Source: Leucoraja ocellata (lineage: Eukaryota). Taken from it: DNA of 64,000 nt. The number at the start of each line of letters is the position of its first letter. The first letter of the stretch is position 1. The translations under genes and the position numbers were made by a program. Of this stretch, positions 19,255 through 57,539 are shown piece after piece. The notes beneath the pieces were generated by a model. It did no database searches. It had not been told where the DNA came from and saw nothing but the letters and a program-made list of their open reading frames with translations. The stretch lies in NCBI GenBank assembly GCA_036785375.1, contig JAWMAR010000253.1, forward strand, positions 2,418,001 through 2,482,000. The letters run 5' to 3'.

Positions 19255-19257
19255 TTT

Positions 19258-19275
19258 TGGTGTCAGGAGTGGGAT
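19258..19275 (+). promoter_or_regulatory. Primer-binding site, tRNA-Leu(CAG) type
   Basis: TGGTGTCAGGAGTGGGAT, 3 nt after the LTR, is the reverse complement of the vertebrate tRNA-Leu(CAG) 3' end ...AUCCCACUCCUGACACCA. Confidence 0.88.
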
Positions 19276-20010: not shown

Positions 20011-20046
20011 CCTGAAATATTGTGTGTAATAGTAATAAGTTTAAAA

Positions 20047-20608: not shown

Positions 20609-21934
20609 GGTAACAGGTTGGCTGACGATGCGGCTAAGTGTGCTTCACGCGGTAAATTTAAAGTGGTGGGTAGTATGATGAGGCAGGTGAAAAGCCTTTA
20701 TATGGGCTCGTCTGAATCTGAGAAACCTATGCCAACCATAAATGATGTATAGCTCTTACAGGGGGACGCCTCTGCTAATGTTATAATGGAATGGGAGCAG
20801 CTGGGCTGTCGGAAGGCTGACTCTGGATTGTGGCTCACGCCGGCCGGACAGACCTGTATGACAGACCAGTTAGCGACCTGGGTTGTTGATTGCCTACATT
20901 TAGCCACTCACTGTGGGGCCACCTTGCTAGTAGACGCTCTCTTACAGGCATGGTGGCATCCTCGACTTAAGGTTTTGGCAGCCCAAACTAGTGCGCGGTG
21001 CCTCACCTGTGCTACACACAACCCTGGTAAACGAGTTGTCTGCCAGACGGGTCGTACTCCATTATCTACTGCTCCGTTTGAAACCTTGCAGATGGATTTT
21101 ATTGATTTGCCTAAGTGTCAGTGTTATAAACATGTACTTGTTATTGTTGATGTGTTTTCTAGATGGATTGAAGCCTTTCCAACCACTGATTGCACTGCCT
21201 CTACGGTGGTGTCTATTTTATTACGGCAGGTTGTTCCTCGTTTCGGGGTTCCAAACACCATCAGTTCGGATAACGGCCCTCACTTCATTGCCGCTATCAA
21301 TAAAGAATTGTACCGACAGCTGGGCGTAACCCAGCGGCTACATTGTGCTTATCGCCCACAGGCTGCAGGAATGGTGGAACACTTGAACTAGACCCTGAAG
21401 ACCAAGCTTGCCAAGCTGGTGGACCAATCAGGCTCCACCTGGGTTAAAATGTTGCCCGTTGCTTTGTTCCAGATCAGAGTCCTTCCAGCAGGGAAGACAA
21501 GGTTGTCTCCTGCAGAGATCATCTATGGCCGACCTCTGCGCACCCCTTGGACAGACATTATCCCGGCCACAATGACGTTGCATCACATGACGGAGGAGAT
21601 GGTCTCTTATGTCCTTGCCCTTACAAGGGCCCTGCGTGAGATTCATGGGAAGGTCAAGGCCGCTTATGTGGGCGACATAGATTTTCCCGTTAATGGACGG
21701 ATCACCCCGGGTTCTTATGTGTTGATTAAGAATTGGGTTCGTAAGGACACCCTTTCTCCTCGATGGTTGGGCCCCTTCCAGGTTCTCCTCACCACCCCCA
21801 CCGCGGTAAAGGTAGAAGGACGATCGGCATGGGTGCATCTGCACCATTGCAAAGTGGTTGGTGACACCAAGCAAAGGTGGGAGGTCGAGGTCAGGGAGGG
21901 GGATCCAGTCCACGGAAAGCAGGGCACGAATTAA
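20609..21934 (+). pseudogene. pol: pol remnant: RNase H C-terminus plus integrase, with in-frame stops
   Basis: GNRLADDAAK; HLATH...CLTC zinc finger; QMDFID...SDNGPHF...GMVE DDE core; WLGPFQVLLTTPTAVKV...WVH GPY/F region. Stops near 20750 and at 21389. Confidence 0.93.
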
Positions 21935-22553
21935 TTTTGCTATGAGATTGCACGTTCTTTTTTTCCCTCCCTTGTCTTCACAGATACGAAATAAATCACT
22001 GAGATCAGGGTCTTTGTGGCATTAATATGTGTGGCGACCACTGCCAGGTTAATCGGTTTCGGCTGGAAATGGACAAAGACTGAACACGGACGGAACTAAC
22101 AGGAGACTCCTAACTAACTCCAATTTATTCATCCAGGCACACAACGAGCTATTCAGGAAGGGGCAGGTGCTTTGTTATCCACAAATGAAATCAGTTACCT
22201 CCCTGTTTACCCCATCCCCTGCATGGGGTTGAACTGAACGACTGGTGAAGTGCCAGGACAAAAAACCGGTCCCCGTCAAGCCCGATTAATGGTGGCCTTA
22301 TTGGGTTTGGGGACCACCCCCGAGGAAGCTAAAAGTTCTGTACGAATGATGGTCTTACAGCGTGAGCAGGAGAGACTGTTACCATTCCCCAGCGACAGCG
22401 AAAACAATGAAGTGCGTGAGGAAGGAGAATTGGGGGATAAAGGTCAGACGGTCCAAGAAGCCTTGGCCAGGGAACTAAAAGGTTACGAGTTTCGGCGAAT
22501 GGGACTTTTAAATGGACTATGAGTGTTGCCATAAGAATGGCAAAAGGGGGGAA

Positions 22554-23083
22554 TGATGAATAGAAATTCTGAATCAATGTTATAAGATTGTTCTGAAAGA
22601 CAAAATGGTTGGCCAGGTAGACTGAAACAAAGGACATAAGATGGCTGCTGACCAGACTTGCTGGAACCGGCTGCAATTAAGGAAATCACAATCTCTTGCA
22701 GTTACTGTGTAGTCATGAATAAAGGATCACAGGCCCAGTCTGACAAGATTGAGGAATACACAACCCCCCCCTAGCCAGAAAGACTAAGGAATGTACTGGT
22801 CTGAGATTATGCGTGGTTCCTCTAACTTCCCCTTATATGGACATACTTGGTTTCCTGTATTCTCCCAACGTGTTGGTCCTTTGATCGGGGGGAATGTGGG
22901 AGGTGCTAAACGGTGGCATTAACATATAAAGAGCCTTGCAATTAAGGGCAGGCAGCTTGACTCTTTGCCAGGTTGTAACCTGTGTGGAGATTCCTGCTCA
23001 ATAAAACGTACGTTTAAAGCAACCCTGGTGCCTGGTCGATTATTGTCGAAACAACCGATGAGAGAGAGAAACGTGAATCAACA
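22554..23083 (+). repeat. ERV 3' LTR, preceded by polypurine tract AAAAGGGGGGAA (22542-22553)
   Basis: Direct repeat of the 5' LTR with the PPT immediately upstream. Confidence 0.95.
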
Positions 23084-23269
23084 GGGGAGGGGGCGAGACA
23101 TGCGGACGGGGAAAACGAACACGGAAAGTCAGGATGACATTGCGGGTGAAAATGGAGAAATCAGGCGGGTATTCCAATATCTTGCCAGTTGCTGGGGAGG
23201 GAGAGGCAGATTGGCAGATGAGGAGACTGGTGTGAGTGGTAAATACAATGAGGATGTAGAGATGGACAA

Positions 23270-24965
23270 TAGGTGTAGGAGTAGGCCATTCGGCCCTTTG
23301 AGCCAGCACCGCCATTCAATGTGATCATGACTGATCATCCCCAATCAGTACCCCGTTCCTGCCTTCTCCCCATATCCCCTGACTCCGCTATCCGCTAGAG
23401 TCCTATCTAGCCAGTGAACCTGTCTCCACCGCCCTCCGAGGCAGAAAATTCCACAGACTCACCACTCTCTAAGAGATAAAGTGTTTCCTCATCTCCGTTC
23501 TAAATGGCTTGCTCCTTATTCTTAAACTGTGGCCCCTGGTTCTGGACCCCCCCCCCCCCCCCCCCTCCCCCAACATCGGGAACATGTTTCCTGCCTCTAG
23601 CATGTCCAAGCCCTTAACAATCTTATATGTTTCAATGAGATCCCTTCTCATCCATCTAAACTCCAGAGTGTACAACCCAGCTGCTCCATTCTCTCAGCAT
23701 ATGACAGTCCCACCATCCCGGGAATTAACCTTGTAAACCTACGCTGCACTCCCTCAATAGCAAGAATGTCCTTCCTCAAATTAGGGGACCAAAACTGCAC
23801 ACAATACTCTAGGTGTGGTCTCACTAAGGCCCTGTACAACTGCAGAAGGACCTCTTTGCTCCTATATTCGATTCCTATTGTTATAAAGGCCAACAAGCCA
23901 TTCGCTTTCTTCACTGCCTGCTGTTACTGCATGCTTACTTTCATAGACTGATGTACAAGGACCCCCAGATCCCGTTGTACTTCCCCTTTTCCCAACTTGA
24001 CGCCATTTAGATAGTAATCTGCCTCCCTGTTTTTGCTACCAAAGTTGATAACCTCACATTTATCCGTATTAAACTTCATCTGCCATGCATCTGCCCACTC
24101 CCCCAACCTGTCCAAGTCACCCTGCATGCTCATAGCATCCTCCTCACAGTTCACACTGCCACCCAGCTTTGTGTCATCTGCAAACTTGCTAATGTTATTT
24201 TGAATCCTTTCATCCAAATCATTGATGTATATTGTAAATAGCTGCGGTCCCAACACTGAGCCTTGCGGTACTCCCACTAGTCACTGCCTGCCATTCTGAA
24301 AGGGACGCGTTAATCCCTACTCATTGTTTCCTTTCAGCCAACCACTTCTCTATCCATGTCAGCACTCTACCCCCAATACCATGTGCCCTAATTTTGCCCA
24401 CTAATCTCCTATGTGGGACCTTATCAAATGCTTTCTGGAAGTCCAGGTACACTACATCCACTGGCTCTCCCTTGTCCATTTTCCTAGTTACATCTTCAAA
24501 ATATTCCAGAAGATTAGTCAAGCATGATTTCCCCTTCGTAAATCCATACTGACTCGGACCGATCCTGTTACTGCTATCCAAATGTTCGGCTATCTCATCT
24601 TTTATAATTGACTACAGTATCTTCCCCACCACCGATATCAGGCTAACTGGTCTATAATTCCCTGTTTTCTCTCCCGCCTTTCTTAAGAAGTGGGATAACA
24701 GCTACCCACCAATCCGCAGGAACTGATCCTGAATCTATAGAACATTGGAAAATTATCACCAATGCATCCACGATTTCTAGAGTCACTTCCTTAAGTACCC
24801 TGGGATTCAGACCATCAGGCCCTGGGGATTTATCAGCCTTCAGTCCCATCTGTCTATCCAACACCATTTCCTGCCTAATGTGGATTTCCTTCAGTTCCTC
24901 TGTCACCCCAGATCCTATGGCCACTACTATATCAGGGAGATTGTTTGTGTCCTCCTTAGTGAAGA
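23270..24965 (-). mobile_element. Decayed CR1 LINE (RT to 3' end)
   Basis: Fragmented ORFs with KSPGPDG, YLDFQKAFDKVPH and FADDTK. Confidence 0.92.
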
Positions 24966-26738: not shown

Positions 26739-26819
26739 CTGAAATATATGATGGACTTTAACAAATTCCACAAGAAATGCAGTAAACAGAAACTGCAACT
26801 CATAGGGCGGCCTGGTTAT

Positions 26820-29800
26820 TAGAAACATAGAAACATAGAAATTAGGTGCAGGAGTAGGCCATTCGGCCCTTCGAGCCTGCACCGCCATTCAATATGATCA
26901 TGGCTGATCATCCAACTCAGTATCCCGTACCTGCCTTCTCTCCATACCCCCTGATCCCCTTAGCCACAAGGGCCACATCTAACTCCCTCTTAAATATAGC
27001 CAATGAACTGGCCTCAACTACCCTCTGTGGCAGAGAGTTCCAGAGATTCACCACTCTCTGCGTGAAAAAAGTTCTTCTCATCTCGGTTTTAAAGGATTTC
27101 CCCTTTCTCCTTAAGCTGTGACCCCTTGTCCTGGACTTCCCTAACATCGGGAACAATCTTCCTGCATCTAGCCTGTCCAACCCCTTAAGAATTTTGTAAG
27201 TTTCTATAAGATCCCCTCTCAATCTTCTAAATTCTAGAGAGTATAAACCAAGTCTATCCAGTCTTTCTTCATAAGACAGTCCTGACATCCCAGGAATCAG
27301 TCTGGTGAACCGTCTCTGCACTCCCTCTATGGCAATAATGTCCTTCCTCAGATTTGGAGACCAAAACTGTACGCAATACTCCAGGTGTGGTCTCACCAAG
27401 ACCCTGTACAACTGCAGTAGAACCTCTCTGCTCCTATACTCAAATCCTTTTGCAATGAAAGCTAACATACCATTCACTTTCTTTACTGCCTGCTGCACCT
27501 GCATGCCTACCTTCAATGACTGGTGTACCATGACACCCAGGTCTCGCTGCATCTCCCCCTTTCCCAATCGGCCACCATTTAGATAATAGTCTGCTTTCCT
27601 GTTTTTGCCACCAAAATGGATAACCTCACATTTATCCACATTATACTGCATCTGCCAAACATTTGCCCACTCACCCAGCCTATCCAAGTCACCCTGCAGT
27701 CTCCTAGCATCTTCCTCACAGCTAACACTGCCCCCCAGCTTAGTGTCATCCGCAAACTTGGAGATATTGCCTTCAATTCCCTCATCCAGATCATTAATAT
27801 ATATTGTAAATAGCTGGGGTCCCAGTACTGAGCCTTGGGGTACCCCACTAGTCACTGCCTGCCATTGTGAAAAGGACCCGTTTACTCCTACTCTTTGCTT
27901 CCTGTTTGCCAGCCAGTTCTCTATCCACATCAATACTGAACCCCCAATGCCTTGTGCTTTAAGTTTGTATACTAATCTCTTATGTGGGACCTTGTCGAAA
28001 GCCTTCTGGAAGTCCAGATACACCACATCCACTGGTTCTCCCCTATCCACGCTACTAGTTACTTCCTCGAAACATTCTATAAGATTCATCAGACATGATT
28101 TACCTTTCGTAAATCCATGCTGACTTTGGCCAATGATTTCACCACTTTCCAAATGTGCTGCTATCCCATCTTTAATAACTGACTCTAGCAGTTTCCCCAC
28201 TACCGATGTTAGACTAACTGGTCTGTAATTCCCCATTTTCTCTCTCCCTCCCTTCTTAAAAAGTGGGGTTACGTTTGCTACCCGCCAATCTTCAGGAACT
28301 ACTCCAGAATCTAAAGAGTTTTGAAAGATTATTACTAATGCATCCACTATTTCTGGAGCTACTTCCTTAAGTACTCTGGGATGCAGCCTATCTGGCCCTG
28401 GGGATTTATCGGCCTTTAATCCATTCAATTTACCCAACACCACTTTCCGGCTAACCTGGATTTCACTCAATTCCTCCAACTCCTTTGACCCGCGGTCCCC
28501 TGCTATTTCCGGCAAATTATTTATGTCTTCCTTAGTGAAGACGGAACCAAAGTAGTTATTCAATTGGTCCGTCATATCCTTGTTCCCCATGATCAACTCA
28601 CCTGTTTCTGACTGCAAGGGACCTACATTTGTTTTAACTAATCTCTTTCTTTTCACATATCTATAAAAACCTTTGCAGTCAGTTTTTATGTTCCTTGCCA
28701 GTTTACTTTCATAATCTATTTTTCCTTTCCTAATTAAGCCCTTTGTCCTCCTCTGCTGGTCTTTGAATTTCTCCCAGTCCTCCGGTATGCTGCTTTTTCT
28801 GGCTAATTTGTACGCATCATCCTTCGCTTTGATACTATCCCTGATTTCCCTTGTTATCCATGGATGTACTACCTTCCCTGATTTATTCTTTTGCCAACCT
28901 GGGATGAACAATTTTTGTAGTTCATCCATGCAGTCTTTAAATGTCTTCCATTGCATATCCACCGTCAACCCTTTTAGAATTAATTGCCAGTCAATCTTGG
29001 CCAATTCACGTCTCATACCCTCAAAGTTACCTTTCTTTAAGTTCAGAACCATTGTTTCTGAATTAACAATGTCACTCTCCATCCTAATGAAGAACTCAAC
29101 CATATTAAATAAATAAATTGACTCTTGATTATGGTCACTCTTGCCCAAGGGGGCACGTACAACAAGATCGCTAACTAACCCTTCCTCATTACTCAATACC
29201 CAGTCTAAAATAGCCTGCTCTCTCGTTGGTTCCTCTACATGTTGATTTAGATAACTATCCCGCATACATTCCAAGAAATCCTCTTCCTCAGCACCCCTGC
29301 CAATTTGATTCACCCAATCTATATGTAGATTGAAGTCACCCATTATAACCGTTTTGCGTTTGTCGCACGCATTTCTAATTTCCTGTTTGATACCATCTCC
29401 AACTTCACAACTACTGTTAGGTGGCCTGTACACAACACCCACCAGCGTTTTCTGCCCCTTAGTGTTTTGCAGCTCTACCCATACCGATTCCACATCCTCC
29501 AAACTAATGTCCTTCCTTTCCATTGCATTAATCCCCTCTTAATCAGTAACGCTACCCCACCTCCTTTTCTTTTCTGTCTATCCCTCCTGAATATTGAATA
29601 TCCCTGGATGTTCAGCTCCCAGCCTTGGTCACCCTGGAGCCATGTCTCCGTGATCCCAACTATATCATAGTCATTAATAGCTATCTGCACATTCAACTCA
29701 TCCACCTTATTACGAATGCTCCTTGCATTGAGACACAAAGCCCTTCAGGCTTGTTTTTACAACACCTCTTACCCCTTATACAATTATGTGAAAAGTGGCC

Positions 29801-30233: not shown

Positions 30234-30433
30234 NNNNNNNNNNNNNNNNNNNNNNNNNNNNNNNNNNNNNNNNNNNNNNNNNNNNNNNNNNNNNNNNNNN
30301 NNNNNNNNNNNNNNNNNNNNNNNNNNNNNNNNNNNNNNNNNNNNNNNNNNNNNNNNNNNNNNNNNNNNNNNNNNNNNNNNNNNNNNNNNNNNNNNNNNNN
30401 NNNNNNNNNNNNNNNNNNNNNNNNNNNNNNNNN
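30234..30433. other. Assembly gap (200 N)
   Basis: Run of Ns; the round length suggests a placeholder of unknown true size. Confidence 0.99.
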
Positions 30434-33645: not shown

Positions 33646-35545
33646 AATGGGTGACGTGTCGGCTCGAGACCCTTCTTCAGATTGATGGTCTCGCCCCGAA
33701 ACATCGCCACCATTTTATGTCAATATTCGGTTTAAACCAGCGTCTGCAGTTCCTTCCTCCCACTTTCACAGGAGACTGGTTTTAATTAAAAGGTAATCAC
33801 ATCAAAGCCTTCCTGTTTGGCAGCAGATCAAGCACAGTTTGAAGTAAAACAGGCTCTAGGAGATTAGAAATTGACGTGCTCTGGGCTGAACACACCCAGG
33901 CAGCTGTCTGTCTCGTTCCTTCTGCATTCATGACCAGTGGTTTAATGCTGAAGTGGCAGCACCACAGCTACAGCTGCTGCTTCAAAGCTCCAAATACCCA
34001 GGTTCACATGCTGATCACAGCGATTCTGTGGTGAAGTTTTACAGAGAACTAGTCTAAGTGCAGACCCTTTGGTCCCCCAACGCAGCCGTTCCCTACCCGT
34101 AGCCCCCACGGGAGACTGGTCCTCCAACTCAAGCCGTTCCCGAACATAATAGAGGTCTTTAAAATGATGAGAGGGATAGACAGAGTTGATGTGGACAAGC
34201 TTTTTCCCTTTGAGAGTAGGGAAGATTCAAACAAGAGGACATGACTTCAGAATTAAGGAACAGAAGTATAGGGTAACATGAGGGGGAACTTCTTTAAGCG
34301 GCTATCGTGCAGATAGCCATTAATGATTATCGTGCAGATAGCCATTAATGATTATGATATAGTTGGGATCATGGAGACATGGCTCCAGGGTGACCAAGGC
34401 TGGGAACTGAACATCCAGGATATTCAATATTCAGGAGGGATGAGAGAAAGGAAAAGGAGGTGGGGTAGCGTTGCTGATTAGAAAGGAGATTAACGCAATG
34501 GAAAGGAAGGACATTAGTTTGGAGGATGTGGAATTGGTATGGGTAGAGCTGCGAAACACTAAGGGGCAGAAAACGCTGGTGGGTGTTGTGTACAGGCCGC
34601 CTAACAGTAGTAGTGAAGTTGGAGATGGTATCAAACAGGAAATTAGAAATGCGTGCGACAAAGGCAAAGCAGTTATAATGGGTGACTTCGATCTGTTCGG
34701 CATGGACATGTAGGGCCGAGATGGCCTGTTTCCGTGCTGTAATTGTTATATGGTTATATGTGATGCCTTTATGTAATACATGTAATATATATATAGTGTA
34801 AATACCAGTGCCTGTAAAGTGTAAAAAGTAAAGAGGGAGATGTGATGTCTTTGTAATGTAATATATGTAACATAAACTTGTGCCTGAGCCTCGTGACTGA
34901 GGTCAATTGACCTTCAAGATAAAGGCAGTGATTGCAGAATATACGAGCTCGGTGTGGACGTGTCCTCTTGTGCTAGTCACAACAGCCTTGCCTCTGACAG
35001 AAAACCTTTACACCTACGCTGCACTCCTCAATAGCAAGAATGTCCTTCCTCAAATTAGGGGACCAAAACTGCACACAAGACTCCAGGTGTTGTCCACTAG
35101 GACCCTATACAACTGCAGAAGGACCTCTTTGCTCCTATACTCAACTGCTCTTGTTATGAAAAGCCAGCCAACATGCCATTCGCTTTCTTCACTGCCTGCT
35201 GTACCTGCATGCTTACTTTCATTGACTGATGAACAAGGACCCCCGATCCCCCTTTTCCCACTTGACACCATTTAGATAATAATCTGCCTTCCTGTTTTTG
35301 CTACCAAAGTGGATAGCCTCACATTTATCCACATTGAATTGCATCTGCCTGCACTCACCCAACCTGTCCAAGTCACTCACCCAACCTGTCTCTGCCCAAG
35401 ATTGAACCCGGGCCTCTGGCAGCAACTGCGCCACTGTGCTGCCCAAATGTATCTATAATTTCCAAGAAGAAACTTGATATTAATTCAAACCGTAAGGAAC
35501 GTGAAATCCGATCCTTCTGTGACTTAGGCAGCTCCGAGCAAGCAT

Positions 35546-36185
35546 AGAAACATAGAAATTAGGTGCAGGAGTAGGCCATTCGGCCCTTCGAGCCTGCACC
35601 CGTCATTCAATATGATCATGGCTGATCATCCAACTCAGTATCCCGTACCTGCCTTCTCTCCATACCCCCTGATCCCCTTAGCCACAAGGGCCACATCTAA
35701 CTCCCTCTTAAATATAGCCAATGAACTGGCCTCAACTACCCTCTGTGGCAGAGAGTTCCAGAGATTCACCACTCTCTGTGTGAAAAAGTTCTTCTCATCT
35801 CGGTTTTAAAGGATTTCCCCCTTATCCTTAAGCTGTGACCCCTTGTCCTGGACTTCCCTAACATCGGGAACAATCTTCCTGCATCTAGCCTGTCCAACCC
35901 CTTAAGAATTTTATAAGTTTCTATAAGATCCCCTCTCAATCTCCTAAATTCTAGAGATATGAACCAAGTCTATCCAGTCTTTCTTCATAAGACAGCCCTG
36001 ACATCCCAGGAATCAGTCTGGTGAACCGTCTCTCTGCACTCCCTCTATGGCAATAATGTCCTTCCTCAGATTTGGGAGACCAAAACTGTACGCAATACTC
36101 CAGGTGTGGTCTCACCAAGACCCTGTACAACTGCAGTAGAACCTCCCTGCTCTATACTCAAATCCTTTTGCAATGAAAGCTAACA
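35546..36185 (-). mobile_element. CR1 3' fragment fused back-to-back with the + strand CR1
   Basis: Tail and C-terminal ORF2 sequence on the minus strand, abrupt junction at 36185. Confidence 0.9.
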
Positions 36186-38185
36186 GGGATAGTATCAAAG
36201 CGAAGGATGATGAGTACAATTAGCCAGAAAAAGCAGCATACCGGAGGACTGGGAGAATTCAAAGACAAGCAGAGGAGGACAAAGGGCTTAATTAGGAAAG
36301 GGAAAATAGATTACGAAGAAAACTGGCAGGGAACATAAAAACTGACTGCAAAAGTTTTTATAGATATGTGAAAAGAAAGAGATTAGTTAAACAAATGTAG
36401 GTCCACTTGCAGTCAGAACAGGTGAGTTGATCATGGGGAACAAGGATATTGGCGGACCAATTGAATAACTACTTTGGTTCCGTCTTCACTAAGGAAGACA
36501 TAAATAATTTGCCGGAAATAGCAGGGGACCGCGGGTCAAAGGAGTTGGAGGAATTGAGTGAAATCCAGGTTAGCCGTGAAGGGTGTTGGGTAAATTGAAT
36601 GGATTAAAGGCCGATAAATCCCCAGGGCCAGATAGGCTGCATCCCAGAGTACGTAAGGAAGTAGCTCCAGAAATAGTGGATGCATTAGTAATAATCTTTC
36701 AAAACTCTTTAGATTCTGGACTAGTTCCTGAAGATTGGTGGTAGCAAACGTAACCCCACACTTTTTAAGAAGGGAGGGAGAGAGAAAACGGGGAATTACA
36801 GACCAGTTAGTCTAAAATCGGTAGTGGGGAAACTGCTAGAGGCAGTTATTAAAGATGGGATAGCAGCACATTTGGAAAGTGGTGAAATCATTGGACAGAG
36901 GCAGCATGGATTTACGAAAGGTAAATCATGTCTGACGAATCTTATAGAATTTTTCGAGGATGTAACTAGTAGCGTGGATAGGGGATAAGCAGTGGATGTG
37001 GTGTATCTGGACTTCCAGACGACAAGTTCCCACATAAGAAATTAGTATACAAACTTAAAGTACACGGCATTGGGGGTTCAGTATTGATGTGGATAGAGAA
37101 CTGGCTGGCAAACAGGAAGCAAAGAGTAGGAGTTAACGGGTCCTTTTCACAATGGCAGGCAGTGACTAGTGGGGTACCGCAAGGCTCAGTGCTGGGACCC
37201 CAGCTATTTACAATATATATTAATGATCTGGATGAGGGAATTGAAGGCAATATCTCCAAGTTTGCGGATAACACTAAGCTGGGGGGCAGTGTTAGCTGTG
37301 AGGAGGATGCTAGGAGACTGCAAGGTGACTTGGATAGGCTGGGTGAGTGGGCAAATGTTTGGCAGATGCAGTATAATGTGGATAAATGTGAGGTTATCCA
37401 TTTTGGTGGCAAAAACAGGAAGGCAGACTATTATCTAAATGGTGGCCGACTAGGAAAAGGGGAGATGCAGCGAGACCTGGGTGTCATGGTACACCAGTCA
37501 TTGAAAGTAGGCATGCAGGTGCAGCAGGCAGTGAAGAAAGCGAATGGTATGTTAGCTTTCATAGCAAAAGGATTTGAGTATAGGAGCAGAGAGGTTCTAC
37601 TGCAGTTGTACAGGGTCTTGGTGAGACCGCACCTGGAGTATTGCGTACAGTTTTGGTCTCCAAATCTGAGGAAGGACATTATTGCCATAGAGGGAGTGCA
37701 GAGAAGGTTCACCAGACTGATTCCTGGGATGTCAGGACTGTCTTATGAAGAAAGACTGGATAGACTTGGTTTATACTCTCTAGAATTTAGGAGATTGAGA
37801 AGGGATCTTATAGAAACTTACAAAATTCTTAAGGGGTTGGACAGGCTAGATGCAGGAAGATTGCTCCCGATGTTGGGGAAGTCCAGGACAAGGGGTCACA
37901 GCTTAAGGATAAGGGGGAAATCCTTTAAAACCGAGATGAGAAGAACTTTTTTCACACAGAGAGTGGTGAATCTCTGGAACTCTCTGCCGCAGAGGGTAGT
38001 CGAGGCCAGTTCATTGGCTATATTTAAGAGGGAGTTAGATGTGGCCCTTGTGGCTAAGGGGATCAGAGGGTATGGAGAGAAGGCAGGTACGGGATACTGA
38101 GTTGGATGATCATATTGAATGGCGGTGCAGGCTCGAAGGGCCGAATGGCCTACTCCTGCACCTAATTTCTATGTTTCTATGTTTC
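36186..38185 (+). mobile_element. CR1 LINE, mirror copy of the 13134-15143 element
   Basis: 338-aa RT/C-terminal ORF 37084-38100; same 3' flank as the left-arm copy. Confidence 0.95.
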
Positions 38186-40030
38186 TAAGGAGAGAGGGGA
38201 AAGATTTAATAGGTGCATCACAAGCAATATTGTCACTCAGAAGGTGGAGGGTGTATGGAATGAGCTGCCAGAGGAGGCAGGTACTATTAACATTATTTAA
38301 AAGACACTTGGAGGTATACAGGCCAAACACGGGCAGATGGAACTAATGCAGCTGGGGCACGCTGGCCAGTGTGGGCAAGTTGGTCGAAGGTCCTGTTTCC
38401 ACGCTGTATCACTCTATAACTCTATCGACATGGGCCAAGGGAACTGGCTTAGATGCGGTATCTTGATCAGCATGGATGAGTTGGACCTAAGGGTTGCAGT
38501 GAAGAAAGCTAATGGCATGTTGGCCTTCACAACGAGAGGATTTGTATATTGGAGTAAAGAGGTCCTTGTGCAATTGCACAGGGCCCTGATGGGACCACAT
38601 CTGGAGTATTGTGTACAGTTTTGGTCTCCTCATTTGAGGAAGGACATCATTGCTATTGAGGTAGTGCAGCGTAGGTTCACGAGGTTAATCCCCGGGATGG
38701 CGGGACTGTCATATGAGGAAAGATTGGAAAGACTGGGCTTGTATTCACTGGAATCTAGAAGGATGAGAGGTAATCTTATAGAAACATGTAAAATTATAAA
38801 AGGACTGGACAAGCTAGATGCAGGAAAAATGTTCCCAATGTTGGCGGAGACCAGAACCAGGGGCCACAGTCTAGGAATAAAGTGGAGGCAGTTTAAAACT
38901 GAGATGAGAAAAAACGTTTTCACTGAGAGATTTGTGAATCTGAGGAATTCTCTTAGAGGCCAAATCACTGGATGAATTTAAAGAGAGTTAGATAGAGCGC
39001 TAGGGGTTGGCGGAATTAAGGGATATGGGGAGAAGGCAGGCACGGGTTATTGATTGTGGATGATCAGCCATGATCACAGTGAGTGAAGGGCCAAATGGTC
39101 TCCTCCTGCACCTATTTCCTATGTTTTCTATGTCTATGTTTTCTAAAGGCCTGTTTTGTACCTGTACGACTACATTCTTATTATCCCTCTCCCTGCTTAG
39201 TGTTTTGGCATCTGGAGCAGTTTTACTGCATAAGTCAATGTCTATTCATTGAGGGTGTTTACTCAAGAAACCACTGTGGCCCTTCCTCATTATAGTGGCA
39301 CGCAGTTTGGAAACAGGCCAGTTGACCGAACAAGTCCATGCTGACTCATCAAGCACCCATCTGTACTTTTCACATGTTATTCCCTGTCTAGGCAAATCGG
39401 GCACAGTGTTAGAGCTGCTGTCTCACAATGCCAGAAATGTTGATTCCCTGTACAGAGTTTGTACGTTCTTCCTTTGACCATGTGAGTCTTCTCCAAGTGC
39501 TTCAGTTTCCTCTCACACGCCAGAGATGTGTCTTTAGGTAAATTGTCCCTAGTGTGTAGGATAGTGCAAGTCTATGGCATGATTGCTGGTTGGCATGGAC
39601 TCGGTGGGCAGAAGGGCTTGTTTCTACGCTATATCCCTAAAGTCTAAAGATGTAGGAGGGAACTGCAGATGCTGGTTTAAACCAAAGATAGACACAAACT
39701 GCTGGAGTAACTCAGCAGGACAGGCAGCATCCCTGGAGGGAAGGAATGGGTGACATTTCATGTCGAGATTCTGGATTCTGATTCTGGATGATCAGCCTTG
39801 ATTATATTGAATTACGATGCTGGCTCGAAGGGCCGAATGGCCTACTCCTGCACCTAATTTCTATGTTTCTAAGATTATTCATTCAGAGCCTCATCTGTAT
39901 GGGTGGTGGAATACTCATGTGCCTGCTGCCCTTGTCCATTGGGGTTGGGATAACTCACTGCTGGGCTGGGAAGCTATGGACACCAACACCCCAGAGCTGA
40001 TGGCACTAATATCTTGTCCTTGTGTTTCAG

Positions 40031-40360
40031 GTCTGGGACAGACTGCTGGGAAACCAGGCACTCATCGCTTGGTGAATGGGACACTGGGACAGTCAGTCAC
40101 GTTACCAGGATATATGTCGAGAGAAAACATTTCAATCCTCACTTGGGATTATCGCAGTTCACCAACAACAGGAAAGATTCAATTATGTGCGAAAACTCAA
40201 AACAGTCCAATACAATATAATACACAGGGAATCAGGTTAAACCTGAAGGACTGTAGTCTGGAAATACAGAAATTAACAGAACACGATCAAGGTCTCTATG
40301 AAATGAACTTCAGGACGAATCGAGCTGTCGATGAACAAGTGACAGAACTGAAGATTTATG
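40031..40360 (+). CDS. CD2/SLAM-family receptor, copy B: IgV exon (330 nt)
   Basis: Same splice sites as copy A, open frame, 20 of 110 residues differ from copy A (hand alignment). Confidence 0.9.
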
Positions 40361-40709
40361 GTAATCTATTTCAATTTTATAAACGGTACATTTTCCAATC
40401 TAACAACCTTTAAGAACATAAAGATGTATGGGGAGATGCTTACGATGTGAGTCCAAGTGTGTGGGTTATACGGGCAGGGTGAATACTGAAACATTACATG
40501 GGTTGGAGTCCTTGCTTATTTAGGAACCCATCCTCAGTATTTGCTGTTTGAATATTAATGGTGGAGCACTAGGATGGGTTCTTGAATGGAGGTCTCTCCA
40601 AGCCATCTGACTTCCCTGTAAGATGATAGGGGCCACAGGCATTAAACTTTCTCTGCTAATAACGAGTTTACTTGTGATCTAGTTTTGGTGGCAAAGTGTA
40701 ACCTGGACT

Positions 40710-40750
40710 ATCCAAAAATGGAATCAAATCCCTTGCCGATTACCAGAAAG

Positions 40751-40781
<31 letters not shown>

Positions 40782-42430
40782 AGACAACGCCTCCCTGACG
40801 AGCTAAACCATTTCTATGCTCGTATTGACCAGGACAACAAAACTCCAGCCATCAAAGTTGCTCCACCCCCGAATGAACAACCCCTCAGTCTCTCCACCTC
40901 TGCTGTACAAGATGCACTGAGCAAGGTGAATGAGCACAAAGCTGCCGGCCCCAATGGCATCCCCGGGCGGGTGCTCAGGGCATGTGCTGGACAACTATCC
41001 CTGGTCTTCACTGACATTTTCAATCTGTCACTGGCCCAGGGCGTTGTCCCCACTTGCCTCAAGACATCAACCATTGTGCCAGTGCCCAAACAATCAGCTA
41101 CAGGGAGTCTCAATGACTTCCGCCGAGTGGCACTCACCCTTGTCATTGCTCAGTGCTTTGAGCGGCTGATCTTGGCTCACCTCAAAGCCAGCTTCCCCCC
41201 CACACTGGACCCCCATCGGTTTGCCTACCGGACCAACAGGTCTACAGAGGACACCATATCGGCGGCCCTACACTCTGCCCTGACCCACCTGGACAGCAAT
41301 AACACCTACATCAGGTTGCTGTTTATTGATTTCAGCTCTGCCTTTAACACTGTCATCCCCGCCAGCTTGATCACCAAACTCAGCGGACTTGGCATCTCCA
41401 CCTCCCTCTGCAATTGGACACTGGATTTCCTCACCAACAGACCGCAGTCTGTTAGGATCAACAACCTCACCTCCTCCACTATAACACTGAACACCGGCGT
41501 GCCTCAGGGCTGTGTGCTCAGCCCTCTCCTCTACTCCCTCTTCACCCATGACTGCATCCCTAAGGATGGATCCAACGCCATAATTAAATTTGCCGACGAC
41601 ACCATGGTAGTAGGACTGATCAGTGACAACGACTAGTCAGCCTACAGGGAGGAGGTCCAGCACCTGACAGCCTGGTGTGCCAACAATAACCTCGTCCTCA
41701 ACTCCAAGAAGACGAAGGAAATTATTGTCGACTTCAGGAAGATCAGAGAGGGCAGTCATACCCCCATCCATATAAACGGGACTGAGGTGGAGCGCGTCTC
41801 CAACTACAAATTCCTCGGGGTACACATCTCGGAGGATCTGTCCTGGTCCCTCAACACCTCCAAGCTGATCAAAAAGGCGCAGCAGCGCCTTTACTTCCTG
41901 AGGAGGCTCAAGAAAGCTCGCCTGTCCCCCCCAGATCCTGAACAACTTTTACCGCTGTACCATCGAAAGCATCCTGGCCACCTGCTTCACAGTATGGTAC
42001 AGCAGTTGCACCGTAGCTGACAGGAAGGCACTACAACGGGTGGTGAAAACCGCTCAGTACATCATTGGTGCCCCGCTCCCTGCCATGGATGCCCTCCACC
42101 GAAAACGGTGTCTGAGACAGGCCGGGAAGATCATCAAAGTCCCCTCACACCCCAACCATGGACTGTTTGCCCTCCTCTCATCAGTAAGGCGGTACAGGAG
42201 CCTCAGGTCTCGTACTAGTAGGATGAGGAACAGCTTCTACAACAACACTATCACATTGCTGAACTCGGAGTCCCGCCGATAGATTTCTCCAGTCTCTCCG
42301 TCCACATTGTTTGCTTATTCTGTATTTTTATTTCTATATTGCACTATTACTACGGACTGCCGCTAAACTGCATTTCGTTGTACCCATACTTGTATTTGTG
42401 GAATGACATTAAAGTTGAATTGAATTGAAT
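40710..42430 (+). mobile_element. Rex1/Babar-clade LINE, 5'-truncated, right-arm specific (in the IgV-IgC2 intron)
   Basis: [12 protein letters not shown]...FTDIFNLSL...[11 protein letters not shown]...[10 protein letters not shown]...KFADDT; (TTGAA)n tail; stop at 41634. Confidence 0.9.
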
Positions 42431-42696
42431 TGTAAACTCTCAGGAAGGATTTTGCACTAAAACTACGGGTGTTTGTACAGAGTTTGTAAATTGTCCGTAG
42501 TGTGTAGGATAGTGCTCGTGTGCGGGGATCGCTGGGCGGCGAGGACTCAGTGGGCCAAAGGGCTTGTTTCCATGCAGTATCTCTAAACTAAACTAAAGAA
42601 TCTTCTACGCTTAATGTTCTTGTGGGGAAACTCATGGCTAGCAGCTTCTGGTTGATATTATTCCATGGCTTGTATTTGTGCTTTTCTTTGAAACAG

Positions 42697-42987
42697 AACG
42701 AGTGTCATCACCAGTAATAACTATCAGTGAAGCCTTCACCGAAGGGGTGTGTAACGTTAGCTTGGTGTGTTCACTGGAGCACGGCACCGAGCCAGTGTAC
42801 ACTTGGTGGTCAGGAGATGGCAAGGTCACGGCAGATGGGTCGCACATACTGACTGATGAAGGGAGAAGGCTGGCACTCTCCATACCTCTACCCAACACCA
42901 ACAGCGTGTACAACTGCACCGTGGGGAACCCTGTTAGTGAGGAGACGCGGAGCGTGGATCTAACACAGCTCTGTCCTGCCCATGAAG
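42697..42987 (+). CDS. CD2/SLAM-family receptor, copy B: IgC2 exon (291 nt)
   Basis: aaacag|AACGAGTG ... GAAG|gtttgt; 6 of 97 residues differ from copy A. Confidence 0.92.
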
Positions 42988-43392
42988 GTTTGTGGCTTTA
43001 TCTTTTCATTCTAAGCAAACTATTCAGTGACAATCAAGGTTTTTAATTTCCTTTCTTTCCAAGTCAAACTCCCTATAGATCAGGTCAGGTCATAAATGGA
43101 TCAATGGTTTACAGGAATGTGAAGTCTTGAGTGTAAACCTACAATGTTTCCTTTGCTATTTCATTCCAACTGATCCTATCTGTGAATTAGTCAGTGTTTG
43201 GCTGTAAGGGACGGGAATCATTCAAGTTCAACAACACTGATGTCACTAGAATTACTATTTATATTTGAGGAAATCTCTCTCTACCACCATTATTTCTTGA
43301 TTGTACCATTGATGAATGTTTAATTATACTGGTTCTCACAACCTGGTGCAACCAGGGTGGTTTGGTGGCACAGGGGAAGTGTTGCTGCCTAA

Positions 43393-45768
43393 TAGGCCTT
43401 TCTCACGGGGCGACTTGACGCAACCAGAGTGAAGTGGTCGTGGTCTAGCACGATATCACACGATATAACGGGGGGGGGTAGACAAAGAGTTCCCACGGTA
43501 CTCGGCATTTCTGTTATTTGTGCGAGTGACTTGTCCGTCTCCCGAGCTTTCCCATTAAATCTTGAATGAGCATTGTAAACTGTCAAGTGTAATTAAATCA
43601 TCACGTGGCACAAATGATGTCACTTTTTTTTCACACACTATAAATATCCTCCCTTGGTTGAATTGGCTCATTTGGAGACATGCCTGGGAGGGGGAGAAAG
43701 AGAGAGGTGGGGGAGGGGGAGAAAGAGAGGGGTGGGGGGGAGAGAGAGAAATGAGGGGAGACATATATACACACACAAAGCAGAGTACACAGATGGACTG
43801 AGCACAGTACCTCGGTCTTACTGTGTGTGGGAGAGGGGGAGAAAGAGACGTACACTCACAGAGGCAGAGGGTGGGCGAGGGAGAGGGAGAGAGTGTAAGT
43901 TACCTAAAATTAAATAATTCAATGTTCATAGTGAACACAGACACAAAATGTTGGAGTATCTCAACGGGTCAGGCAACATCTCTAGAGAAAATGCACAGGT
44001 GGCGTTTGTGTCTATCTTCGGTAAAAACCAGCATCCGCAGTTCCTTCCTGCACAATGGATCTCAGTGTCAAGTCTCTGACTCCCGTTGGCAGGCCATTCG
44101 GCCCACAGCCCGCCCAGCGATGACTAACCCATGTCACAGGGGGATGGTGTGAAGGCGGAGTTAGACAGAGCTTGATTAATGTTACGGTTGGGGAATGGGC
44201 CATAATATGGCCAGGGAAACGTTGTTATTCGTGACGCCCCCTCCGCCCTTTCCCAGCTGTTCTCAATCGCACCCCTGGCCACACAAAAATTTATACTTTA
44301 AGAAGGAATACACGGAACATTTAAACTCAGAACGCTTCTAACAGAGTGAGCCATGTGAGCACTTTGATCATTCTCCCTGTATTTGCATTTGACAAAATAG
44401 TCGGAAAAAAATGTTTAAAAGTGTTCATACCTTTTGCTATGCCTAATTGGCCCTTACCTCTGCGAAAATAGTCTGATATTCGTAGGTGAAATGTCACCAA
44501 CAATAATTGATTCTATTATTAATTGACTAATAATTTACTCTATTAGCGGAAAGATGCAATTCTGATCTAATATTATAAGTGCCTCTGTCTTTGGAAGCAA
44601 CACCAGCAATTTATTAAATCTGACTACATGCGGCACAGTGGTAGAGTTGCTGCCTCACAGCCCCAGAGACCGGGGTTCGATCCTGACCATGGGTGCACCG
44701 GTTTCCTCTCACACTCCAGAGATTACAGGTTTGTAAGTTAATCAGCTTCGGTAACATTGTAAAATTGTCCCTGGATTGTATAAGAATAGGTGGTCGGCGC
44801 GGACTCGGTGGGCCGAAGGGCCTGTTTCCGCGCTATATCTCTAAAATCTGAAGTTAGGTAATGTCTAAAGGAACTGCAGATGCTGGTTAATACGCACAAA
44901 AGGACACAAAATGTTGGTGTAACTCAGCAGGTAAGTCAGATCTGGGAAGGAAAACATAAAAAGCTGGAGTAAGTCAGCGGGTCAGGCAGCATCTCTGGAG
45001 AAAAAGAATAGGTGGCGATTCGAATCGGAACCCTCCTTCAGACATCCTAATCGGAATTGAGTCTGAAGATGTGTCTTGTCCCGAAACATCACCTATTTTT
45101 CTCCAGAGATGCTGCTTGACTCGCTGAGTTACTCCAGCTTTTGTGTCTGTCTTCGTTTCAAACCAGCATGTGCAGTTCACTCCTTTACACGGGTCTCTGG
45201 AGAACATTGATTGGTAGCGTTCCGGACACTGCTTCGGAAAGGCATCGATCGCTGGTCGGCGAGGACTCCAAGCTGTATCTCTCAAAGAAGTACATGTGAA
45301 AAATTTCTCACGGACCATAAAAATGCGGGACCTTTCAGTAAAGTCCCTTTTAAAGATTATAGTTATTTTCTTGAATCTCATTAACATAACTCATGCATAA
45401 ATTGATGTCCATATGCGGATGCAAATCTTTATTTTTTTTAATTCAATCCCACAGAAGACAATTTTTCCTCACCTGTCCCCTCTGTCCAGCTTCCGGGTTC
45501 ACCGTTCCCACGGTACACGCAAGAGTTATTACGAATATCGCACCGGCCACTACGTGCATATAATGTTGCAATGTTCAACCACAAGTGTACAAGTCACTCT
45601 TGGAGAAATTCAAGCTTGTTTGAATTTTCTCCCGAGTCACCAAGTTACACGAGTACCTGCCGTTAGTGCCACGGTGGTCCACGAATGCCGTACGGTTATC
45701 GCAAGAGGTTCCCACGATGTTCAACTCTAGTTAACTCTTGCGTCAAGTCGTCCCGTGAGAAAGGGGTT
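43393..45768. mobile_element. PIF/Harbinger-type non-autonomous element, right-arm specific
   Basis: ~30-bp TIR ..CCTTTCTCACGGGRCGACTTGACGCAA, TAA duplication, splits a SINE head. Confidence 0.8.
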
Positions 45769-49354: not shown

Positions 49355-49478
49355 GTGTCCAGCAACAGCAAGCACTCCATATTGGCTTGATTACTGCGGC
49401 AATTGTGGTGGGAGCTATCATCTTAGCTAGCATTGGCTGCATGTATTACAAGAAAAAACCAAACCACGATGAAGGCAG
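49355..49478 (+). CDS. CD2/SLAM-family receptor, copy B: transmembrane exon
   Basis: tttcag|GTGTCCAG; GVQQQQALHIGLITAAIVVGAIILASIGCMYYKKKPNHDEG; 9-nt in-frame indel relative to copy A. Confidence 0.82.
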
Positions 49479-52254
49479 GTACTCGACTATTCTTCTTCTT
49501 AAACCATGCAGTCTAATCCCAGGTTATGGCCCTTCACAACAAGCCGGCTCATGTAGGCGCCTACAAGTTCCTTCGTGTGTGCTGTGTTTTTCATGTTATT
49601 CTGTGACCTCAAAATGGTGCTTTGCAAAGTTTGTGCTTCTTCTTCCAGTTCCTTAGGCGATCTTCAGTGTGATGCACAAAGAACCCCAGGTATGTGCATA
49701 CCTATGGCGTCCAACGTACACCATTCCTGGCATGTTGACTCACTTTAGAATGGTTTGCAGTCTTTGAGATCTCCTTCAGAATTCAGCTTCACCAGTCTAT
49801 CTTCAGCTGCATTTCAAGAGGCTTTCACAGTACCTGTCCGTCTTTCTTCTGATTGACTTCAACTATACCTTCCTGTATAGGTTCAAACGCAGTTGGATCC
49901 CTTTTCAGGTGCCGACATTCAGCCCCTTCTTCAGACCTTGCAACTCACCCCCTTTATTCTCCAGGTACCAACCCTGAACACTGAACAAGTTCTCTACCCC
50001 CCACCTTACTTGAGTTACCCATCGATCTCCCGACCCAACACCCTCTCTCCCACTGAGTGATCCCAAACCCCTGCTCCACACATATCAACAGCAGCCTAAA
50101 TGTGTAGGAAGGAACTGCAGATGCTGGTTTATACTAAAGATAGTCACAAAGTGCTGGACAACCCAGCGGGAAAATCTACATCCCACGTGTTGGATAGGAC
50201 ATGAGGAAAGATTGTTCCATTACACACCACCCAATGCAAGCCCAGGTAAGCTGATGCCGATAGACATAAAATGCTGAGGCAACTCAGCGGGTCAGGCAGC
50301 ATCTCTGGAGAAAACAGATGGGTGACATTTTGGGTCAGGACCCTAATTCGAAATGTCATCTATTCTTTTTCTCCAGAGATGCTCTCTTGTGTAGGAAGGA
50401 ACTGCAGCTGCTGGTTTAAACCAAAGAGAGGCACAAAATGCTGGAGTAACTCAGCGGGACAGGCAGCATCTCTGGAGAGAAGGAATGGGTTGAGGTCTTT
50501 CTTCAGACTGGGTTCCTTTTGTCTAGAGATGCTGCCTGTCCCGCTGAGTTTCTCCAGCATTTTCTGCCTATTGTCTCATGGTAGCATGGGTGAAATTGTA
50601 TAAAGACTCAACGCGTAGTCTGTGAAACCATTCTTTTCCATGCTCAGAGTAACTCTTTCATGTTTTATCTCCTGCTCTTTCTGCAATAGTTGACACTAAC
50701 AGAATGTAACTTTCACAACTGATCAAATCTGCTCTCCTCTCTGTTGTTCTTGCTGTCTAAGCTGAAAGGAATGACGCTTGATCTAGTTTCTCTGCTACAA
50801 CGCTGCTGTAACTCTCCCTCTGCATCCAGCACAGATAATTCAATGGTGTGTAGGAAGGAACTGATAATTCCCGACTTTGGGCAGTTTTGTACCCGTCACC
50901 AGCCGCGCTTTCTTCGAACTGTGGAATCTGAGGACTTAGATTGCGACTGAGGATGATGAACAAATCCTTTGGAGCGAAGATTCTGGAGTTTCAAACCAAA
51001 TGGCATAAATGCCAATTCACTAGATTGGGTTGGCATGTTGCCCAGAGATGACTCTGGTGCAAAGAGTAATCCAACTTTTGTTTTCCCTTGACTAACAGAA
51101 CTTCGCCATGCTTAGCTTATTTCTGATGATGTGAGGTGCAGAGGCCTGGGAACCATTACCTCCAGTTTCAAGGACAGCTTCTTCTCATCAACCATCAGGT
51201 TCTTGAACCACCTTGCATGACCCGACCTCTGCACCCGACACCAGGAATTTGCACTACTATGGACCCTCGACATACTTTATTTTTTTACTAAAGTTAGACG
51301 CAAAAAGCTGGAGTAATTAAGTGGTCAGACAGCATCTTTAGAGAAAAGGAATAGATGACATTTTGAATCGAGACCCTTCTTCAGACATGTGTTTCAGACA
51401 GGCTTTTACTAGTTTACTTAAAGTAAATAATATTTTTTTATATACGGGTATTTATTTGTGTTGTTACATCTAATGTGTTTGTCAAGCTGCAGCTTAAGAA
51501 TTTTGTTGCTTCTGATTCATATGACAAATAAACACTCTTGAGAGAAAATGATTCTCTGTCTGTCCAATATCCAATGTGCAACTTTGATTGTAATGACATA
51601 AACTGGATACCTCTCCCCTGGTGGTCTGTGGATGGACCGAGGTGACAATACCAATGGGTGGGGCAATGATTGCCTGAGGATATGGTGAACCTTGGCAGGG
51701 ATGCCCATTGTGGCTGTCTCGTCATTAGGAGTAGAGTAGAATTAGGCCATTCGGGCCATCGAGACTACTCCGCCATTCAATCGGGGCTGATCTGTGCCTC
51801 CTAATCCCATTTTTCTGCCTTCTCACCATAACCCTTGAAACCCATTCTAATCAAAAATGTGTCTATATCTGCCTTAAAAATATCCACTGACTTGGCCTCC
51901 ACAACCCTCTGTGGCAATGAGTTCAACAGATTCACCACCCTCTGACTAAAGAAGTTCCCCCTCACCTCCTTTAATTCTGAGGCTATGACCGCAGGTCCAA
52001 GACTCACCCACCAGTGGAAACATCCTTTCTGCATCCACTCTATCTATGCCATTTTGAACAAAGAAGGCATGCCTGGTGGAAGAATTGAGCACAAAGGGGA
52101 AGAGTGTATGGGGAAAATATTTAGTAAAAAGGAAAAGGAGCATGGTTCCAATAGCAATTGTTTTTATTTAAAGCTCCTAACACAGAAAGGAGAAGTGAAC
52201 CACCACTGTATGCTGTGATCGTGAGAGCAAACCAGGCCAGGGACCAGGTTGGTA

Positions 52255-56160: not shown

Positions 56161-57539
56161 GTAGTTGCTGTCTATAACTGTCAATAAACCTGAGAAAGCA
56201 GCCCTCCCACAGCTAGTCCTCCAGCACAAAGCTTCAGTCATTATAGCGAACTCTGTATTACCGTAAAGTACTCTCCCTGCAGAGTTGAATCTATACAATT
56301 CCACAAGACAGAGATGACCATAACATTCAGAAGCCTGCAGCACTTGCTCTGCATGTCTTGTGGTACAAAGGCCACTAAAGCCATGATCATATTGAATGGC
56401 GGTGCAGGCTCGAAGGGCCGAATGGCCTACTCCTGCATCTATTTTCTATGTTTCTATACATGAGAAAATTCCTTCAATGTTACTTCAGAACACATCATCT
56501 CTTTCACCAGGCATTTCAGAATTTATAACCGCACAAAACTCTATCTCCCAGTGCCAAGATCTCTCTTGATGTCTGTAAACTGCCTTGTACTCCAAAACTA
56601 TCCTCTGCACTATTCCCTGCACCATGCATTACAAGCCCGAGTCACATAAACACCAGATCTAAACACACGGTCCATTGACAATCTTTCCTTTCATGCCACA
56701 GAGACATTTACGTGAACTGGATGCCAGTGGAGGAGAGCAAAATGGAAACGCACAGCTTACCACGATATACGATGAGATAAAATTCAACCCCAATCTGGAC
56801 ACTGCAGGGGCAAGACCGAATGAGGGAAAGGCGCTCTCTGCCCACCGTTTATCATCTGATACATGAAATTTAACCCCCAGCTTGAATTACGCCTTGAATT
56901 GCACGTCTGCGTTTTGCGTTGAAACTGCTTTCTGCAATACTAATAGCCGACCCGAATGGCTTGTTTGTTGGGGGCAGAGACCTGGAACTTGTTTACAACT
57001 AGATCATTGTTTGAAAGGCCAAGGCAAATGGGAGAAATTCAAGTAGGAAATGTTGGGAATACACAGCAAGACCATAATTTCTAAGGAGGGAACTCGGTGA
57101 AATAGAGACATGGAGGTGATGCCGTGGTTTCCGTCGTGGACTTTAACATCAAAGGAGCCTGCGGTCCACTGCTGAGGATCGCCTGTGAAGGAGCTCCAAC
57201 CACGAGGCCTGTGGACCTTAACACCATGAAGCCTGCGGTCTCCAGTAAGCAGAGGCCGACACGGGAGCAGCACGCCGTGGAGTGTTCCAATCCGTGCCGA
57301 CCCCGGAGTTTCGATCATCCCGACGCGAGGGGTTCGGACATCAGACCGTCGGCAGTGGCGAGTGCGGAGGGTTCAACCCCGACCACGGGTGAAGAAAGGA
57401 GGAAGATGATTGAACTTTATTACCTTCCATCACAGTGAGGAATGTGGATTATGTTGTGGTGGATGATTATGTTCAATTTTATTTTATGTCACTGTGTGTA
57501 TTGTTGCTTTTCACTTGGTATGGCTGTATTGGAAGAGGG

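Follow-up and report, generated by a model that had tools for sequence, protein, structure and literature searches.

Diversification of binding domains accompanied by gene conversion of the ectodomain is already familiar in families of immune receptors, and expanded sets of CD2/SLAM genes have been reported in frogs and carps. Sameshima and colleagues are said to have described in 2012 a cyprinid CD2f expansion, in which many CD2-subfamily copies combine similar ectodomains with either long ITSM-bearing or short tails; this lineage is independent of the skate family treated here. Papers on Siglec-11/16 and on CEACAM genes reportedly describe homogenisation restricted to the ectodomains of paired receptors. 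The paired receptors KLRC, Ly49 and PIR resemble the skate genes in the patchy conversion confined to ectodomain exons, with diverging transmembrane (TM) and tail exons and introns (PMC3210942), and in CEACAM32 selection is described as resisting conversion in the Ig exons (PMC7042247), as we propose for the skate. Unlike in these paired receptors, the binding domain of the skate family is the less homogenised of the two Ig exons, and opposite signalling by the two skate classes is putative.

Mammalian SLAM receptors, including SLAMF1/CD150 and SLAMF6/NTB-A, share with the skate genes the IgV-IgC2-TM-tail architecture, a V domain without the B-F disulfide and the motif TxYxxI (PMC4718992, PMC12506779), the ITSM consensus being TxYxxV/I (PMC12506779). 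However, the mammalian family consists of nine divergent single-copy genes, whereas the skate has about two dozen copies with 88-98% exon identity and one ITSM only. SLAM receptors bind through their V domains to themselves as well as to measles H and E. coli porins (PMC4718992), so by analogy a variable V face would fit either kind of ligand. In the CD2/CD58 and 2B4/CD48 pairs, one partner is without a signalling tail (PMC12506779). The Xenopodinae expansion of CD2/SLAM genes (Guselnikov et al. 2011, as described in PMC4536121) is, like that of the skate, lineage-specific, with more than one signalling type and some arginine-bearing TM segments. The frog segments carry NxxR, an adaptor-binding motif for FcR-gamma (PMC4536121), whereas in the short TM of the skate the arginine stands at the outer edge of the hydrophobic stretch without an asparagine. 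The kind of evolution described here is thus known. In the openly accessible articles searched, no account of a SLAM or CD2 expansion in skates or sharks, and so none of this family, was found, although supplements of genome papers could list such genes. A term search of the fish immunity review PMC6795676 returned no mention of SLAM or CD2, and in passages of a study on the nurse shark Cd2 and Slamf6 appear solely as markers (PMC10529500).

The window is a stretch of 64,000 nucleotides from the skate Leucoraja ocellata, on the contig here called C253 of assembly G000. Judged by its sequence, the exon at 40031-40360 (+), of 109 whole codons, codes for the V domain of a skate receptor of CD2/SLAM-like type with an ITSM tail, whose gene we call A. 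It matches the V-set profile with E=1e-7, and its best solved relative by sequence is SLAMF6 (E=2e-5). The closest homologues are skate proteins (80-88%) named SLAM-like by RefSeq, followed by shark and ray homologues at 44-64%. The predicted model of the domain (pLDDT 87) contains strands A'-B-C-C'-C''-D-E-F-G; its best fold match is SLAM in 3alz, and it also matches CD2/CD58, CD48, 2B4 and NTB-A. However, nectin, JAML and CAR match with E-values similar to those of SLAM relatives, so the fold alone does not single out SLAM. The canonical B-F disulfide is absent, there being no cysteine in strand B (22-24) or at F position 91. The membrane-proximal domain is of C2 type with conserved cysteines and is followed by one TM segment, as in the CD2/SLAM family, and the cytoplasmic ITSM that characterises SLAM receptors is present as TIYDEI in A and in its mirror gene B. 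For V-V binding in trans, which like SAP/EAT-2 recruitment and leukocyte expression is putative in the skate, a predicted homodimer scored 0.16 against a mark of 0.32. The V domain has non-canonical cysteines that vary, at codons 40111-40113, 40186-40188, 40216-40218 and 40252-40254 (+). Cys52 is invariant in 28 aligned sequences, and residue 62, its likely partner in C'', is a cysteine in most sharks and in 8 of 19 copies; Cys27 and Cys74 are additions seen in skates. Gene A has tyrosine at 62 as well as at 27, where most copies have cysteine, which leaves two cysteines of A without likely partners.

In the human genome, the SLAM cluster at 1q23 is linked to NCSTN, PEX19 and FCER1G. The skate nicastrin and PEX19, together with an exon that we take to be of zeta/FcR-gamma type, lie on contig C201 and not on C253, beside distant (27-35%) SLAM-like exons. 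The family in the window therefore belongs either to a CD2/SLAM-like cluster of its own or to a remote stretch of the chromosome that carries these markers. The C201 group, with at least seven distant SLAM-like Ig exons near these markers (G000:C201:44571-915858), is probably the canonical SLAM locus of the skate.

Gene A continues on the plus strand with an IgC2 exon (42697-42987), a TM exon of the long-tail class whose hydrophobic core has no charged residue (49355-49478), a first cytoplasmic exon with one tyrosine, in PLYAVI (52174-52247), and a last cytoplasmic exon (56702-56866) that encodes the ITSM TIYDEI (TxYxxI) in one frame and DIYVNW in another. Gene B mirrors it on the minus strand, with an IgV exon at 10962-11291, an IgC2 exon at 10041-10331 and a TM exon of the same class at 3484-3598, 9 nt shorter than that of A; its tail exons are located to the left of the window, in locus L044. 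Both IgV exons have AG/GT ends, the reading frame is uninterrupted in all four exons identified for A and for B, and the last exon of both genes encodes TIYDEI, which is kept in shark and ray homologues. Intron 2 of A contains a 5'-truncated LINE (RVT_1) of about 1.7 kb, with approximate edges at 40750 and 42430 (+), that is absent from B. The TM exon of A has two donors 4 nt apart, GC after 49474 and GT after 49478 (+), through which the last exon (56696-56866, +) is readable in two frames, yielding either the tail with the ITSM or a shorter one that contains a YVN motif, presumably of the Grb2-type YxN. Both tails are annotated in Pristis (P0014/P0065) and in Scyliorhinus (P0019/P0070), so the dual frame is old. 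The first acceptor of the last exon is lost in A, where AAG of B has become ATG (56693-56701, +), but with a CAG that follows in frame 6 nt downstream, neither frame is closed.

The two genes lie in arms of about 23 kb that are 94-97% alike and are separated by an assembly gap of 200 N (30234-30433); leader exons may thus be hidden in the gap, and the head-to-head orientation is unproven. The space between the genes is filled by direct and inverted segmental repeats of 94-98% (13134-15741, 26819-29464, 17452-19254, 22554-23083 and 34275-35545). Searches of the window plus 30 kb on the left and 20 kb on the right, by tblastn with known leaders including 16 N-termini and by blastn, found no leader exon for A or B, and neither did a scan between the arms for exons with an ATG, a hydrophobic stretch and a donor. 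Searches across the genome recovered four long-class leaders, all at C253:2.24-2.28 Mb, and none for A or B. Upstream of the V acceptor, at a distance of 57 nt, an ATG in frame with the exon (39976-40030, +; 11346-11292, -) opens a 19-residue N-terminus identical or nearly identical to that of Logan protein P0006; this could reflect either a second start site or the end of an intron that is retained. The leader of A and B may lie in the gap, the upstream ATG may be used, or the genes may be silent, and A and B may accordingly not be expressed as surface proteins.

Searching the skate genome with the V exon gave 34 matches, which correspond to 28 near-copies, one distant gene and one further partial exon that is excluded from the count of 28. 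Some of these 28 copies are probably alleles. Their TM exons fall into two classes, both of which are present in other skates: six belong to the long-tail class, and 20 matches belong to a short-tail class, in which an arginine marks the outer edge of the TM segment and the tail is without a tyrosine motif. For copies L016, L033, L039, L027 and L034, no TM match was found. In nine copies of the short class, leader, V, C2 and TM are all intact. Single-base indels in V or C2, which may be read errors, occur in eight copies, and L027 is broken by an 11-nt deletion at the start of V and a stop at the start of C2. The short-class arginine is conserved in three skate genera, where NxxR is absent; the best 19-residue hydrophobic window begins just after it in P0048 and includes it in P0064 and P0047. 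Across the family the Ig exons are 88-98% alike, while flanking introns of different classes are 10-20% apart or cannot be aligned. Near-identical ectodomains thus stand on two TM/tail classes, as in paired receptors. On the ectodomain tree the tail classes need three changes, and the starred branches force just one.

Several other features of the family were observed. Short-tail copies L017 (C622:852929-853039) and L018 (C3829:25636-25746) have a second arginine in the TM exon, RVR replacing RVL. Orphan short-tail TM exons that lack a V-exon match occur at G000:C253:2355628-2356628, C846:131530-131640 and C1395:192040-192129, one of them with a broken IgC2. A second head-to-head long-tail pair (G000:C253:2262638-2288003; L025, L026, L050-L052) is 99.2% identical, with identical V exons and crossed leaders, each lying 4 kb upstream of the V exon of the other gene on the opposite strand, and a third leader in between. 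There is a gap between the two members, so this pair may be an assembly duplicate.

Comparison of the IgV exon of A with the reverse complement of that of B reproduced the counts given in the preliminary description: 32 of 330 nucleotides differ, with 20 codons changed in their residue and five synonymous, and the IgC2 exons differ in six residues (8 nt; 6 of 96 whole codons). The differences in V are clustered, 12 of them falling within one 40-nt window (p=0.005), and nine pairs of differences are adjacent where 3.0 are expected (p=0.001). Placement of the changes in the BC, C'/C'' and FG regions stands as far as clustering and the distal loops are concerned (13 of the 20 changed residues are in these loops or at most two residues away, a set of 36 of 109 codons; p=0.003), but the predicted model assigns RN/LK (residues 71-72) to the DE loop and SK/NT (63-64) to the C''D loop. 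Just 8 of the 20 belong to the front-face set (p=0.24). The ratio of 20:5 had been read as an excess of amino acid changes; in fact 72% of sites are non-synonymous, and 23 non-synonymous differences among 32 are no excess (p=0.60). Pairwise dN/dS (NG86) is 0.83-1.09, that is about 1 and not above neutral as had been supposed, which rules out a whole-exon dN/dS>1 for this pair.

How divergent the exon appears depends on the yardstick. Its 9.7% is five times the 1.9% of the repeat-rich upstream arm (36184-40030, +, in A; 11292-15144 in B), twice the 4.9% of the pooled downstream introns (341/6916; p=5e-4) and above the 5.6% of the immediate flanks (p=0.014), but only 1.4 times the 6.8% of intron 2 alone (42/621), which is not a significant excess (p=0.13). 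The comparison of exon with intron, proposed earlier as a check, is therefore borderline: the excess is significant over all downstream introns but not over intron 2. The flanking repeats are indeed much more alike, as had been noted, but the upstream arm is an outlier, most simply through recent homogenisation, which is likely, and the IgC2 exon (2.75%) lies below the introns, so both yardsticks used in the preliminary description are low. In the V exon, A and B are no closer than unrelated family members; their distance is ordinary for the family, 15% of 351 pairs being equally or more distant.

Most of the bases by which A and B differ are shared with other copies. At the 32 sites, the base of A is present among 24 other copies at 28, that of B at 24 and both at 20, when L019 and the partial L041 are excluded, and just four sites are private to A and eight to B. 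The nearest neighbour of A shifts along the V exon: upstream A follows B, and from about 40231 to 43686 it is within 2-3% of L027, including the LINE that these two share. The densest cluster, a patch over strand F and the FG loop (exon 266-305; 40296-40335, +), has 12 differences between A and B and two between A and L027. Hence a third paralog, whose involvement was to speak against the earlier interpretation, accounts for this cluster, and from the FG loop onward A follows this third, broken paralog, with either direction of transfer being compatible. A PHI-like test rejects a single history for V (p=0.0008) and for C2 (p=0.0016), and sites that adjoin each other in the V exon cannot be fitted to one genealogy. 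Over 120 non-independent pairs, distance in intron 2 is a better predictor of distance in IgC2 (r=0.71) than of distance in IgV (r=0.33). The FG motif of A differs in one residue of eleven from Amblyraja P0058, and the NQG type of FG loop found in B turns up again in three skate genomes, among long as well as short copies. Since FG types recur across skate genera and tail classes, the patches are old. Shuffling of patches among copies is well supported; the V exon of L027 is mosaic although this copy is broken, so the patchwork needs no selection on the recipient.

A block of 15.8 kb that includes the B exons (8486-24288) is 99.8% identical to G000:C3022:79786-95590, where L019 lies. Of the 29 substitutions between them, 12 are in the IgV exon, seven in IgC2, none in intron 2, six in intron 3 and four in the 13 kb upstream. 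Point mutation cannot produce such a contrast between 12 V-exon sites and 4 of 12,997 upstream sites (p=7e-17), and the cause is either a natural conversion limited to exons or read polishing that drew on a copy absent from the assembly. A 144-nt contig of sequencing run X1 equals positions 11019-11162 of B with zero differences. The corresponding patch of L019 contains minority bases and is at least eight sites from any of 26 other copies. The region downstream exists in three versions, those of the A arm, the B arm and C3022 (94-98.6% to each), so there are at least two loci.

Diversifying selection on the binding face, the central proposal of the preliminary description, was examined across the family. 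V is more divergent than IgC2 in 93% of 351 pairs, and 76% of non-synonymous diversity falls on 44% of codons (21 copies). In 19 copies, front-face piN is 0.154 compared with a piN of 0.037 and a piS of 0.060 elsewhere in V and IgC2 (bootstrap P<0.001), where the face is a set of 33 codons drawn post hoc, after the alignments had been seen, from the usual strand alternation of V-set domains rather than from side-chain coordinates, and where codon bootstraps ignore linkage. The excess has the same direction in C253-only, long-only and short-only subsets. Synonymous diversity is raised too: piS is 0.12-0.14 in front-sheet segments and 0.057 outside, so that synonymous diversity is roughly doubled in these segments relative to the rest, and non-synonymous diversity is roughly fourfold at face codons. 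No excess of dN over local dS was found on the face (piN 0.154 vs local piS 0.119-0.133, P=0.28), and the ratio for segregating variants is 0.85 in V and 0.91 on the face. CpG hypermutation was rejected as the cause of the face diversity, CpG-type sites making up just 10 of 63 variable face sites.

Codeml-type site models, fitted to 19 of the 28 copies (eight with indels or partial sequence and one identical copy were dropped), gave no trustworthy proof of selection. On a single tree the M2a vs M1a statistic is 18.5 for V, but it is equally high for IgC2 (20.1), and it falls to 1.6 (p=0.45) with segment trees, which are fitted to short stretches and make the test conservative. Simulations with recombination and no positive selection reached 18.45 in 13 of 42 cases; the single-tree signal was accordingly discarded as proof of selection. 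Classical positive selection, in the form of a recombination-proof dN/dS>1, was thus found neither at the domain nor at the site level. Segment-tree lengths along the V exon are 0.42, 1.33, 0.23 and 0.82, so diversity rises and falls in step with protein topology. Joint elevation of dN and dS is what selection on whole patches under conversion would be expected to produce, and the reported escape of CEACAM32 from conversion offers a parallel for selection on patches of an Ig exon (PMC7042247). We consider it likely that selection keeps these patches. What stands of the original proposal is the greater variability of V and its concentration on the front sheet and distal loops family-wide; the pairwise dN/dS of about 1 speaks against the proposal. 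Selection is overstated here by each of three measures: codon counts of 20:5, divergence judged against a homogenised flank, and site models run on a single tree.

We favour, somewhat more than its alternatives combined, an explanation in which the V-exon differences are mostly variants common to the family, likely moved as short conversion patches and likely kept by selection on the predicted ligand-binding sheet. It is shown that a long-tailed gene of sharks and rays has numerous near-identical counterparts in the skate, which fall into two kinds by their membrane/tail exon, that their two Ig exons stay 88-98% alike while the class introns diverge, and that V sites have incompatible histories. 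By inference, conversion and unequal crossing-over would homogenise the ectodomain and reshuffle short patches, and those over strands C, C', C'', F and G and the FG loop would resist homogenisation because different binding surfaces are favoured. Under this proposal, selection on patches would raise synonymous and non-synonymous diversity together, so dN/dS would stay near 1. A variable microbial protein or other members of the family are candidate ligands; the long-tailed copies would putatively signal via SAP/SHP-type SH2 proteins, and the short-tailed ones may be ligands, decoys or adaptor-coupled receptors. A neutral patchwork is the most serious competitor, and we give it a little over a one-in-four chance: conversion would draw from a diverse pool, exposed V positions would be unconstrained, segments already diverged would convert less and so accumulate diversity in the absence of positive selection, which could mimic the observed pattern, and A and B may be leaderless pseudogenes. 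It would account for a dN/dS near 1 at every local scale, for a site-model signal that recombination explains, for the mosaic V exon of the broken L027 and for the missing leaders of A and B. It fits poorly with diversity that alternates high-low-high along the exon to match protein topology, with a face piN 2.6 times the synonymous level elsewhere in both exons, with FG types that persist across genera and with the open frames of A and B.

An assembly effect, in which A and B would be divergent alleles that were assembled back to back around the gap, or their exons would be chimeras produced by read polishing in a family of many copies, is rather improbable. The 200-N gap, the 2-4% difference between probable alleles nearby, single-base indels that hint at noisy reads and the confinement of B/L019 differences to regions where paralogs share sequence are in its favour, but the three downstream versions, the exact match of the X1 contig, the occurrence of the FG motif of A in another genus and the distinctness of the L019 patch argue against it. 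Least probable of all, in our view, is a single inverted duplication followed by point mutations fixed on the binding face, which would have created a heterophilic receptor-ligand pair of the CD2/CD58 or 2B4/CD48 type, as suggested earlier. Changes near the distal loops and the alike arms agree with it; the scarcity of private sites, the 3' half of A following L027 and not B, and the low share of changes on the front face do not. Moreover, A and B do not differ in their type of TM, which is uncharged, or in their ITSM tail, which makes such a pair unlikely and leaves that suggestion without support; any receptor-ligand or on/off pairing is more likely between the long- and short-tailed classes than between A and B. 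On balance, the variation in this exon is real and is best regarded as a patchwork within a CD2/SLAM-like family of many skate copies, in which diversifying selection is likely but unproven.

What is new is the case from cartilaginous fish, which combines some two dozen close copies in two tail classes with patch boundaries that can be seen, and in which the rate of conversion and selection on patches become directly measurable from a few phased genomes. The contrast between B and L019 allows a more speculative reading, to which we give perhaps a quarter of our belief, of a fast germline cassette system: some two dozen copies, whether signalling, short-tailed or broken, would supply short templated patches confined to the exon. 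These would be written into the V exon so frequently that two haplotypes with four differences in 13 kb of flank would differ at 12 sites (seven residues) from C' to the DE region of the binding domain. Allele-level patching, if real, would be an unusually fast system of innate diversification. If the cassette reading is true, the skate would possess a recombination-generated, polymorphic innate recognition repertoire, made up of ITSM receptors together with arginine-TM partners, that could serve to sense pathogens or to tell self from non-self.
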